This document shows positions 25,874 through 28,586 of a DNA stretch of 32,000 nucleotides, one piece after another. Origin of the DNA: Desulfovibrio inopinatus DSM 10711. GTDB lineage: Bacteria; Desulfobacterota; Desulfovibrionia; Desulfovibrionales; Desulfovibrionaceae. The position numbers and the translations under genes are program-made. The notes beneath the pieces were generated by a model that saw nothing but the letters and a program-made list of their open reading frames with translations, was not told where the DNA came from and searched no databases. The stretch covers positions 1 to 32,000 of the forward strand of contig NZ_AUBP01000029.1 in the NCBI RefSeq assembly GCF_000429305.1, in the 5' to 3' direction. Positions within the stretch are counted from its first letter, which is position 1; each line of letters starts with the position of its first letter.

Positions 25874-27111
25874 AAGTGCGTTGTTCCAATAACCAGAGAG
25901 GCATTTATGCCTCCAAGGGCAAAACTGTTTTTGAGTACGGTGCATACGGACCGTTCCACATCGCTTTGAATGTGCATTGGTCCAAGACAATCTTCAGCAA
26001 TAACGGAGAGGTTCTTGGTGGAGATAATGCGGTTCTCACGTATCATGAGAAGCGACGCGATCATTTCCAGAACGCCGCTCGCCGCCAAAGTATGTCCAAG
26101 ATGCCCTTTGAGACTACTTATAGGCACCTCGGAACCACAAAGCGAAGCCACAGCTCGACATTCTGCAGCATCGCCAAGAATGGTGCCTGTCGCATGAGCG
26201 TTGACATAATCGATATCGGATGCTGAGAGCCCTGCTTGTTCCAGGGCTTGACTCATACAGCGAACCAAGGCTGTGTCTGTTGGGTTGGCCATGCCGTCAG
26301 GGTCACCCATAGTGGCGAACCCGAGCACTTCGGCCAAAATTGGAGCCCCGCGTGATACAGCATGCTCCAGTGATTCCAGCAAAATAACACCTGCTCCTTC
26401 CGCACATACGATGCCATCACGAGCACGATCAAACGGGCGTGGTGTTTGCGTAGGACTGTTGTTGAACGCTTGAGAAGCAGCCTGTATCACATCGAAAGAC
26501 GCCACAGACATGGGTGAAAATTCTTCAGCTCCACCACACAACATCATGTCCTGCAGACCCATGGCGATTGTTTCGTAGCCAAGACCGATAGCTTGTAAAC
26601 TTGATGCACAGGCCGCTGAAGGAGCGAGGATGCGACCGGCGATGCCGAAATACATGGCTGCATTCGTTACGAGTGTGTGGCTCATGATGCGAAACAGAAG
26701 CATCGATTTAATGCTACTGATATCGTGAGAGTGTAAATACTCTGAAAAAAACGCCTCCATGTTCTCACCACTTCCTGTGGTGGAACTCAAAGCAAGGCCG
26801 AGTCGTCCTCCGGTAATAGCGTCCTTATCTAAGTCGGATTCGTTGAGAGCTTCCTGACAGGCCGCCACAGCATAATACGACATAGGTGACATAGAGCGGC
26901 GCGTCTTTCTTGGGATATTACGTCCATTCATCCCGGCTTCAGGAGGTATAATTGCCCCGAGCTTGCAAGCAAGACCTTGAATATCGAGCAATTCCGGTCG
27001 CAAGGAAACGGCGCTTTGACCATTTGTCAGGGCTGTCCACAGGGAATCAACGCCCGCACCAAAAGGAGAGACCGCTCCAGCTGCCGTGATAACAACACGT
27101 CTTAACGGCAT
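25870..27111 (-). CDS. Beta-ketoacyl-ACP synthase (KS-B, extra KS relative to canonical APE clusters)
   Basis: Motifs APSAACASSLQAIG (Cys), VNAHATGT (His) and KGHLGHTLAASG (His). It overlaps the flavoenzyme gene by 10 nt. Confidence 0.9.
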   Translation of the reverse strand: MPLRRVVITAAGAVSPFGAGVDSLWTALTNGQSAVSLRPELLDIQGLACKLGAIIPPEAGMNGRNIPRKTRRSMSPMSYYAVAACQEALNESDLDKDAITGGRLGLALSSTTGSGENMEAFFSEYLHSHDISSIKSMLLFRIMSHTLVTNAAMYFGIAGRILAPSAACASSLQAIGLGYETIAMGLQDMMLCGGAEEFSPMSVASFDVIQAASQAFNNSPTQTPRPFDRARDGIVCAEGAGVILLESLEHAVSRGAPILAEVLGFATMGDPDGMANPTDTALVRCMSQALEQAGLSASDIDYVNAHATGTILGDAAECRAVASLCGSEVPISSLKGHLGHTLAASGVLEMIASLLMIRENRIISTKNLSVIAEDCLGPMHIQSDVERSVCTVLKNSFALGGINASLVIGTTHL

Positions 27112-28586
27112 GAACGCACGCCCTCCAGAATCGTTTCAAATCCATATATTACACCACAAGCGACGCAGGAGGAGACGATAGCTCCGAGCACTCCGGGTGC
27201 AATAGTGGCCTGCCCGGCCAAGAAAAGCCCAGGAACTTTGGTCATGGGAAGTACGTCGGATTGATCCACAGTGTGCATAGGGCCATAGAGTCCTCCACCG
27301 GGAGAAGAAAGGTAGTCTTTAAATGTCAAAGGGGTCGCACTCTCAAGGATGTCCAAGTTGCCTCGCAGGCTCGGAAAAAGACGATACACACGATGAAGAA
27401 TGCGCTCTGTGCATCTTTGTTTGAATTCTGTGTATTCGCCAGGTCGGCTTGTACGAGAGGAGTCTTGCCAATCCGAGACTTCGTCAAAAAAACCGCTTGT
27501 GAAAATAGTCAAACCTTGTTGCCCATTATAATTGGTAGAATAAAACCATAACGGTCTTTCTTCTTGGGGAGTCGTAGGCGAATATCCGATTTCTACATCA
27601 GGACTCGACAAGACACAGGTAGCTCGCCCCCAAAATTCCGGAACCGGACGACGGCATCGAGCAAAAATGGCATAGGCCGATGGGGTTGATTGCAGACTGT
27701 GCAGTCGTTTTCTATAGACTGGCCGAAGAGCTTTTTGTGGCAAGAGTTCCGGCAAAATGCCCGGATGCGTGCAACACACGCACATATCGGCCTCAAGCTG
27801 GCGCCCATTGTCTAGTTGGACGGCTGCAACAGCTCCCGATGCACTCAATTCGATCGTTTGGACTGCAGCACCGACGATACATTCGACACCTCGATCAACA
27901 AGGGCCTGAACAAACGAGCGGGTTAAGGCTTCGCCTCCGCCTTCGACCATGCCAGCACTACGATAATACGTTCCAACAACCTTGGCGTGAATATCAAAGG
28001 GTGCACGCGAAGGTGGCGTGCCATAAAGCATAGAACCTACCCCGAACAGAGCACGCGCTTCGGGAGACTCCATCCTCTCGTTAAGAACATTTTCGACGCT
28101 GAGATTCTCGAACAAATGAAAGGAACTTGACGGAGCATACTTGGTGTCGAAATTGAGAAATGGCGAGGTGGAGCAACGGGCTTGAACTTGATCAAGATAA
28201 TCGGAAATACCGCTCGAATCGTCTGGAAAAAGAGAAGAAGCCATGTCAGCTACGCGTTCACACCCTACAGGGACGTCGATGACACTCTCACTTGATTCCA
28301 GAATAAGCCGCTCAAAACCCTCTTTTTGGAACGGGATAAATGTGAGTGGTGCCAAACCGAGATAACGAAAGTAGCTTGGCATGATGTCATGTTCATCAAT
28401 AGCCCCCAAGTAATGGACGCCAATATCGAAGGCGACTCCTCCCCGGTGAAAACCGCGTAAATTCGGTCCAAGCTGAGGAGCTTTCTCAACCAAGGTCACC
28501 GTGTCGCCCTGGCCGGCACAAATCAGAGCTGTAGCCATTCCTGCCACGCCTGCACCAATGACGACTACTTTACGAGTCATGGTCAA
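27102..28586 (-). CDS. CrtI/phytoene-desaturase-family NAD(P)/FAD-dependent oxidoreductase
   Basis: The N-terminal dinucleotide fold is KVVVIGAGVAGMATALICAGQGDTVTLVEK. The C-terminal family motif is VPGLFLAGQATIAPGVLGA. It is about 490 aa. There is no WxWxIP halogenase motif. Confidence 0.8.
   Translation of the reverse strand: MTMTRKVVVIGAGVAGMATALICAGQGDTVTLVEKAPQLGPNLRGFHRGGVAFDIGVHYLGAIDEHDIMPSYFRYLGLAPLTFIPFQKEGFERLILESSESVIDVPVGCERVADMASSLFPDDSSGISDYLDQVQARCSTSPFLNFDTKYAPSSSFHLFENLSVENVLNERMESPEARALFGVGSMLYGTPPSRAPFDIHAKVVGTYYRSAGMVEGGGEALTRSFVQALVDRGVECIVGAAVQTIELSASGAVAAVQLDNGRQLEADMCVCCTHPGILPELLPQKALRPVYRKRLHSLQSTPSAYAIFARCRRPVPEFWGRATCVLSSPDVEIGYSPTTPQEERPLWFYSTNYNGQQGLTIFTSGFFDEVSDWQDSSRTSRPGEYTEFKQRCTERILHRVYRLFPSLRGNLDILESATPLTFKDYLSSPGGGLYGPMHTVDQSDVLPMTKVPGLFLAGQATIAPGVLGAIVSSCVACGVIYGFETILEGVRSCR

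Follow-up and report, generated by a model that had tools for sequence, protein, structure and literature searches.

A gene located between two ketosynthase (KS) genes of an aryl-polyene (APE)-type biosynthetic cluster in Desulfovibrio inopinatus DSM 10711 is predicted to encode a flavin adenine dinucleotide (FAD)-dependent oxidoreductase of the retinol saturase (RetSat)-like branch of the CrtI superfamily. The gene (27102..28580, minus strand) lies in the window, i.e., the 32,000-nucleotide stretch comprising positions 1 to 32,000 of contig NZ_AUBP01000029.1. Judged from sequence comparison, its product is neither a CrtI proper nor an ortholog of the related proteins from anammox bacteria, and its closest characterised relative is retinol saturase. 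The enzyme is tentatively read as a polyene or enoyl saturase acting on a chain bound to an acyl carrier protein (ACP), with the adjacent ketosynthase KS1 elongating the reduced intermediate; the ACP-bound polyene as substrate, the redox direction and the partnership with KS1 are the parts which we infer. Identity to any characterised enzyme does not exceed 25% (<=25%), and no reading of the FAD enzyme is secure.

The open reading frame (ORF) is not a chance frame, as is evident from a Pfam match, a confident AlphaFold model and more than 150 scoring representatives in the database. The gene and the motifs of its product are as follows:

27102..28580, minus strand: FAD-dependent oxidoreductase gene, predicted member of the RetSat-like branch of the CrtI/amine-oxidase superfamily; 492 amino acids (aa) from ATG 28580, 494 aa from TTG 28586
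28539..28556, minus strand: GxGxxG dinucleotide-binding motif G11AGVAG16 (residues 11-16)
28404..28430, minus strand: FDxGxHYxG motif (residues 53-61)
27171..27227, minus strand: C-terminal FAD-binding motif LFLAGQATIAPGVLGAIVS (residues 454-472)

Both the GxGxxG-type FAD fold and the C-terminal motif reported in the first-pass annotation are present, at residues 11-16 and 454-472. Across 45 relatives, the columns of G11AGVAG16 and of Glu34 at the end of β-2 (encoded at 28485-28487, minus strand) are invariant or nearly so, and His58 of the FDxGxHYxG motif has no exception within the family; Tyr59, Lys389, His438 and Gln442 are likewise invariant. The latter motif is common to RetSat (FDTGIHYIG), and the aligned CrtI segment lines the isoalloxazine pocket. 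A457, G458, Q459, G465, G468 and S472 are invariant in the C-terminal motif. The Pfam model Amino_oxidase (PF01593) matches residues 14-478 with 86.1 bits (cut-off 19.8; E 4e-24). The AlphaFold (AF2) model, with a mean pLDDT of 92.7, predicts the three-domain fold common to CrtI, PDS and MAO. Among solved structures, the top Foldseek match is the carotenoid 3,4-desaturase CrtD (4rep, TM 0.78), followed by 3ka7 from M. mazei, rice PDS (5mog, TM 0.65) and amine/nicotine oxidases (about 0.6), with CrtI (4dgk) in 14th place.

The likeness to RetSat (all-trans-retinol 13,14-reductase of vertebrates) extends over the full length of the window protein and comprises the same fold. BLASTP against human RetSat yielded a collinear alignment of residues 7-480 with residues 70-587 (115 bits, E 1e-31, 23% identity), and the two proteins share FDxGxHYxG as well as a W..G.R..Y..K...LFP.L segment. 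RetSat sequences were fetched from the database, with a probe that proved to be 99% identical to rat RetSat. On the profile hidden Markov model (HMM) of the flavoenzyme family, RetSat scores 222-228 bits, bona fide CrtI 84-89 bits and a CrtD-like protein 82 bits, and the Kuenenia proteins kuste3607 and kuste3336, compared by their N-terminal 400 residues as given in the supplement of Javidpour 2016, reach 130 and 99 bits, respectively. Phmmer searches started from human RetSat returned the window protein with 106 bits, kuste3607 with 88 and kuste3336 with 76 bits, the CrtD-like protein with 45 and CrtI with 37-41 bits. On the CrtISO, CrtI and CrtD models RetSat obtains only 84-95 bits and so behaves like the window protein; TIGR02730, the model for carotenoid isomerases (cut-off 587), gives RetSat 95 and the window protein 57.8 bits. 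No curated model of RetSat-like saturases exists; the assignment was made by BLASTP, family HMM and phmmer. Many of the relatives carry the JGI annotation 'all-trans-retinol 13,14-reductase'. The reaction of RetSat is the saturation of a single double bond in a conjugated polyene (PMC6920856), and a conjugated polyene is also expected as product of the present cluster. RetSat is, however, a eukaryotic protein of the endoplasmic reticulum membrane with an N-terminal extension of ~65 aa and acts on free retinol, whereas the window protein is bacterial and cytoplasmic, is encoded in a type II polyketide synthase (PKS) operon and has an ACP thioester as its presumed substrate.

Membership in the CrtI family, as claimed in the first-pass annotation, holds in the wide sense only. 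The protein has the CrtI/amine-oxidase fold and is an FAD enzyme, carotenoid desaturases are its best model and structure matches, and it resembles CrtI/CrtD (TIGR02734; 4dgk, 4rep) in its FAD-binding GR2 Rossmann fold and in the GxGxxG, GGG and C-terminal motifs. On TIGR02734 (crtI_fam), however, it attains 80.8 bits versus a cut-off of 238.1, while true CrtI controls attain 561-564 bits. The best curated NCBIfam models for the window protein and 44 aligned relatives were CrtD/CrtI, far below the cut-offs and with a best family E-value of 1e-30. On TIGR02734, the lowest E-value among the 45 relatives is 1.8e-24, and none of them approaches the cut-off. R148, D149 and R152 of Pantoea CrtI, which are only proposed to be catalytic, face D, T and a gap, respectively, in a phmmer alignment that is itself weak at this point. 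A neighbour-joining tree (200 bootstraps) shows the flavoenzyme family to be monophyletic (198/200) and to join fused domains from Bacteroidota (197/200), both being left out of the CrtI/CrtD clade (192/200); there is only a weak link (64/200) to a group with RetSat, P0055, P0056 and the Kuenenia proteins. The score below the TIGR02734 cut-off together with the position outside the CrtI/CrtD clade rules out strict CrtI/CrtD membership. As for the phylogenetic placement among the carotenoid enzymes, the protein is thus excluded from the CrtI/CrtD clade; its best curated-model and structure matches are neither halogenases nor amine oxidases.

Relatives of the flavoenzyme were found in at least 191 species genomes, mostly of Desulfobacterota. 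More than 150 database cluster representatives exceed 385 bits on the family profile, on which the window protein scores 615 bits, and the nearest database relatives are merely 33-40% identical to it. These nearest relatives belong to Nitratidesulfovibrio vulgaris, Desulfocurvibacter, Geobacter/Geomonas, Desulfuromonadales, Syntrophus, Syntrophorhabdus and Adiutrix; with few exceptions, the hosts live as strict anaerobes (Desulfovibrio, Geobacter, Syntrophus, Syntrophorhabdus). The gene order KR-KS1-FAD-KS2-ACP-LPLAT-(ApeA)-DH-LolA-MMPL (KR, ketoreductase; LPLAT, lysophospholipid acyltransferase; DH, dehydratase) is almost invariant in 83 related loci, and the order in the window agrees with that of the Desulfovibrionales-type loci. 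Double-length relatives (P0073, P0075, P0133) are tandem FAD-FAD fusions from APE-like clusters of Bacteroidota, where the neighbours are an MMPL-LPLAT fusion and an AMP-ligase, not ketosynthases. The fusion of two copies suggests that the flavoenzyme may work as a (hetero)dimer. Fused paralogous copies of ~1000 aa occur at L087 (1296-4325) and L089 (10001-13135), with SusC/SusD genes next door, an adjoining MMPL-acyltransferase fusion and a hydrolase-AMP-ligase fusion, followed in L087 by a radical S-adenosylmethionine (SAM) gene. The flavoenzyme hence recurs as an accessory in APE-like clusters, and its place between two ketosynthases is the arrangement of Desulfobacterota. P0050, P0052 and P0054 (24-27% identity) are not located in fatty acid synthase (FAS)/PKS clusters, and their context is therefore uninformative.

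The FAD-enzyme ORF as listed (27102..28586, minus strand) comprises 494 aa counted from TTG. ATG 28580 (Met3) is the likelier start, since it yields the family-typical N-terminus (M plus 5 residues ahead of VIGAG) and since the database entry of this protein has 492 aa. Overlaps with both ketosynthase genes had been noted in the first-pass annotation, with coordinates that are right:

28570..28586, minus strand: overlap of KS1 end and FAD gene start, 11 nt from ATG 28580, 17 nt from TTG 28586
27102..27111, minus strand: overlap of FAD gene stop and KS2 start, 10 nt, ATGCCGTTAA; GGAGG located 10 nt upstream, within the FAD gene

The 5' end of the FAD gene reads TTGACCATGACTCGTAAAG, with the KS1 stop codon TAA at 28572-28570. 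No Shine-Dalgarno sequence was found upstream of the FAD start, which is therefore probably reached by termination-reinitiation. At the 3' end, TCATGCCGTTAA holds the FAD stop codon and the KS2 ATG together. Short gene overlaps in this cluster represent normal operon compaction. The 10-nt geometry of the FAD/KS2 junction (ATG/GTG NNNN TRR) recurs in 61 of 81 loci, which marks the overlap as ancestral, and 6 more loci have an ATGA overlap. The penultimate residue Cys493 is nearly invariant; its TGY codon shares the TG with the start codon of KS2, and its conservation is probably a by-product of the overlap, which fixes this codon, rather than the mark of a functional residue. Further downstream, the KS2 stop and the likely start codon of ACP1 (ATG 25873) meet in an ATGA junction, so that translational coupling appears to extend over the whole stretch from KR to ACP. 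The two ACP ORFs as listed (25622-25990 and 15932-16390, minus strand) are over-extended at the 5' end.

The cluster as a whole runs on the minus strand from 30558 to 12602, with the ketoreductase gene first, and comprises next to the FAD gene:

29806..30558, minus strand: ketoreductase, short-chain dehydrogenase/reductase of the ApeQ/FlxB type, 44% identity to ApeQ; first gene of the operon
28570..29796, minus strand: KS1, additional β-ketoacyl synthase; Cys-His-His intact, 32% identity to E. coli ApeR
25870..27111, minus strand: KS2, ApeR-type ketosynthase; 41% identity, 277 bits to E. coli ApeR, Cys-His-His intact
25622..25873, minus strand: ACP1, ApeF-type acyl carrier protein; likely start ATG 25873
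24760..25596, minus strand: LPLAT, ApeD-type; 26% identity to ApeD
24182..24643, minus strand: ApeA-like small protein, 153 aa; 37% identity to E. coli ApeA, no Pfam hit
19203..24087, minus strand: ApeP-like dehydratase, LolA-like protein, MMPL/resistance-nodulation-division (RND) exporter (ApeM), 202-aa protein, ApeI/FabA-like dehydratase and 4HBT thioesterase (ApeK)
17833..19206, minus strand: B12-binding radical SAM protein; TIGR04072, 534.8 bits versus a cut-off of 360
12602..17840, minus strand: ApeJ-type glycosyltransferase 2 (GT2)/LpxL acyltransferase, ACP2 (ApeE-type), KS3 (ApeO-type), Cys-less chain-length factor (CLF) and 4-coumarate-CoA-ligase-like adenylating enzyme (ApeH-type)

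The top curated models are FabB/FabF for KS1 (343 and 328 bits) and the ApeR-type PRK09116 for KS2 (370 bits). Cys-His-His is kept in KS1, KS2 and KS3, and the chain-length factor is devoid of Cys. Window proteins were compared by BLASTP and Pfam with the 18-gene ape cluster of E. coli CFT073. ApeA, C, D, E, F, H, I, J, K, M, O, P, Q and R all have counterparts in the window with 25-44% identity (e.g., KS3/ApeO 35%, ACP1/ApeF 40%, ACP2/ApeE 42%), and LolA-like export proteins are a further feature common to the E. coli/Xenorhabdus aryl-polyene cluster. The gene set typical of aryl-polyene clusters is thereby present (KS/CLF pair, ApeR-type KS, KR, two hot-dog dehydratases, two ACPs, adenylating enzyme, LPLAT, GT/acyltransferase, thioesterase and LolA/MMPL export). 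The flavoenzyme, KS1 as second ApeR-like ketosynthase and the B12-radical-SAM protein have no E. coli ape counterpart; conversely, the methyltransferase ApeB and ApeG are missing from the window. The fetched CFT073 cluster thus bears out that the flavoenzyme stands outside the described ApeA-R set, KS1 and the FAD gene being the adjacent extras. The radical SAM protein, 35% identical to Kuenenia kuste3342 and matching a model labelled 'lipid biosynthesis B12-binding/radical SAM', may take over a methylation step, since the cluster lacks the SAM methyltransferase ApeB. Neither a further candidate enoyl reductase nor an aminotransferase or other nitrogen chemistry was detected in the cluster proteins by Pfam and curated-model scans, and no isoprenoid genes are located near the FAD gene.

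In the related loci, the ApeA-like gene occurs chiefly in those of Desulfovibrio type (e.g., L001, L005, L009, L079). Convergent to the last gene of the cluster is a gene for a PagL-like lipid A 3-O-deacylase (11989-12621, plus strand; Pfam PagL, 65 bits), which hints at a link of the product to lipid A remodelling in the outer membrane. A tRNA-Ser(TGA) gene (31275-31364, minus strand) is located just upstream of the cluster, and a 91-aa ORF crossing it (31176-31451) is almost certainly spurious. The left end of the window harbours, on the plus strand, an IS1595-type transposase fragment (437-949), a PocR-PAS histidine kinase (1136-3949), an extracytoplasmic function (ECF)-type sigma factor (4487-5035) and a class I methyltransferase (5098-6039).

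For the tentatively favoured saturase, the following course of events may be envisaged. The FAD enzyme is translated, along with KS2, from one tightly coupled polycistronic message (KR-KS1-FAD-KS2-ACP-acyltransferase). The cytoplasmic enzyme would act on the ACP-bound unsaturated acyl or aryl-polyene chain provided by the KS, KR and DH of the cluster, and would use its reduced FAD to saturate a single, defined C=C in the conjugated system, as RetSat does with retinol. It would thereby provide a reduction that no FabI/FabK-type enzyme of the cluster can provide, since none is encoded. Elongation of the reduced intermediate would fall to the FabB/FabF-like KS1, which in Desulfobacterota always accompanies the FAD enzyme, upstream of its gene, and which FAD-less ape clusters lack. 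The product would then be handed to its lipid anchor by KS2 (ApeR-type), ACP1 (ApeF-type) and the ApeD-type acyltransferase, and the LolA/MMPL proteins would export the lipid-anchored product. Reduction, i.e., the role of the missing enoyl reductase and the third option of the first-pass annotation, is favoured over added desaturation because RetSat is the nearest characterised relative. Moreover, a reductive step should be easier for the hosts than an oxidant-requiring desaturation, since almost all of them are strict anaerobes. A role of the FAD enzyme in the pathway is indicated by the position between ketosynthases in 83 loci and the conserved translational overlap.

Several points weigh against a saturase. 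At 23% identity to RetSat and with weak deep branches in the tree (64/200), transfer of function would be unsafe. The pathways for APE normally have no need of a reductase, and the product of this cluster type is not known, so that there is no saturated position to explain. No CrtI-fold enzyme is known to use ACP thioesters. Relatives from Bacteroidota are not located beside ketosynthases, and the partnership with a KS may be an accident of gene order. Furthermore, the top solved structure (CrtD 4rep, TM 0.78) and the top curated HMMs (CrtD/CrtI, for the window protein as well as for its 44 relatives) represent desaturases, as do most of the characterised enzymes of the wider superfamily. The same matches speak in favour of a CrtD/CrtI-style desaturase, which would use oxidised FAD and a quinone acceptor to remove 2H from a -CH2-CH2- unit beside the conjugated system; this unit may stem from a saturated starter (e.g., arylpropionyl or fatty acyl), and conjugation would be extended beyond the KR/DH cycle. 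Desaturation is also the published hypothesis for the anammox/Desulfotalea homologs (PMC2649909), repeated in a 2026 review (PMC13459092). However, true CrtI/CrtD reach only 82-89 bits on the family profile versus 222-228 bits for RetSat, the protein falls outside the CrtI/CrtD clade (192/200), and the residues proposed for CrtI (R148/D149/R152) appear unmatched in the pairwise alignment, which is weak there. In addition, the KS/KR/DH cycles already leave every position unsaturated, the strictly anaerobic hosts would offer low-potential quinones only, and the Kuenenia homologs, which are only distant relatives, did not replace CrtI in E. coli (PMC4790861). On balance, a desaturase is considered unlikely.

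Less probable still is a redox-neutral isomerase resembling CrtISO, in which reduced FAD would turn one trans double bond of the ACP-bound polyene cis. KS1 would then take over the bent intermediate, in analogy to FabA/FabB, and the step may precede cyclisation or methylation by the radical SAM protein. Scores of both RetSat and the flavoenzyme family on TIGR02730 agree with this, reduced-flavin catalysis would suit anaerobes, and a dedicated extra KS beside the gene fits a change in geometry; the TIGR02730 match, however, covers the C-terminal 120 residues only and stays far under the cut-off of 587, a radical SAM gene lies within 10 kb downstream in only ~6/55 loci, and there is no direct evidence for a cis bond in any product. 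Quite improbable is other chemistry, with the aromatic head group or the lipid anchor as target of a hydroxylase/ketolase, amine oxidase or halogenase, or a gene merely co-transcribed and otherwise unrelated. The superfamily does include ketolases (CrtO), a dehydroxylase (HpnE) and amine oxidases, amine/nicotine oxidases come after the carotenoid enzymes in the Foldseek list, and a short match to Pfam Trp_halogenase was obtained (27.5 bits, residues 231-298 only). This match covers 64 of 458 profile positions, and the WxWxIP halogenase motif was not found in the translated FAD-protein sequence; the 64-residue fragment, the missing motif and the lack of nitrogen chemistry in the cluster, including an aminotransferase, rule out a halogenase or amine oxidase. 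An unrelated gene is at odds with the invariant position between the ketosynthases (83 loci) and the conserved translational overlap.

CrtI-like flavoenzymes in lipid clusters have been noted before. 'Phytoene dehydrogenase-like' pfam01593 genes were described by Rattray 2009 in FASII-like 'ladderane' clusters of Kuenenia, Desulfotalea, Geobacter and Pelobacter that also contain radical-SAM, phenylacetyl-CoA-ligase and glycosyltransferase genes, and anaerobic desaturation was proposed (PMC2649909). Javidpour 2016 reported that kuste3336 and kuste3607 fail to replace crtI in E. coli (PMC4790861). A 2023 survey recorded such clusters in Desulfobacterota as being of unknown function (PMC9902471), and in a 2026 review the desaturase role is still just a proposal (PMC13459092). 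The ladderane-type clusters of anammox bacteria and Desulfotalea (Kuste3336, Kuste3607; DP1860, DP2405/6) likewise contain a CrtI-fold flavoenzyme in a FAS/PKS-like lipid cluster and have extra ketosynthases, a B12-radical-SAM protein, an aryl-CoA ligase and a glycosyltransferase in common with the window. The Kuenenia proteins, however, are only 21-22% identical to the window protein, score 99-130 bits on the family profile (members >385) and fall outside the clade, which rules out orthology of kuste3336/3607 (N-terminal 400 residues) with it. The co-occurrence of flavoenzyme and radical SAM gene envisaged in the first-pass annotation turned out to be a weak link: among 55 complete loci, only ~6 have a TIGR04072 ortholog in the 10 kb downstream, a lower bound as the flanks end at 10 kb, and an obligate pairing is not supported. 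A paper on type II PKS for cinnamoyl lipids mentions only an unrelated isomerase and an unassigned desaturation step, and no CrtI-like precedent on polyenoyl-ACP. The literature search likewise revealed no characterised product of a Desulfovibrio/Geobacter cluster, no APE-associated FAD enzyme and no paper on the KS-flanked flavoenzyme family or its similarity to RetSat.

The gene is thus a further, rather divergent member of a widespread uncharacterised family, and the general phenomenon has been published since 2009. New here are the mapping onto ApeA-R, with KS1 and the FAD gene as adjacent extras, the recognition of the 10-nt overlap as ancestral, the distinction from the anammox proteins and from CrtI proper, and the relationship to RetSat, which shifts the favoured chemistry from desaturation to saturation and thereby reverses the usual working hypothesis. 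APE-type/'ladderane-type' clusters are among the commonest biosynthetic clusters of Gram-negative bacteria, and those of Desulfobacterota have no known product (PMC9902471); the role of CrtI-like flavoenzymes in them is a question standing since 2009 (PMC2649909, PMC4790861, PMC13459092). The enzyme has a constant place between two ketosynthases in Desulfobacterota and is translationally coupled to them, and close orthologs are present in tractable hosts, e.g., Desulfovibrio vulgaris and Geobacter. Somewhat doubtful at present is the further notion that it represents the first RetSat-type FAD-dependent C=C reductase acting on carrier-bound intermediates in a type II polyketide/fatty-acid synthase, and hence a new class of enoyl/polyene reductases. 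If true, the enzyme would, together with a dedicated ketosynthase, programme sites of saturation in an otherwise fully conjugated aryl-polyene chain, which would provide strict anaerobes with a distinct family of outer-membrane lipids and the RetSat branch with its first bacterial function.

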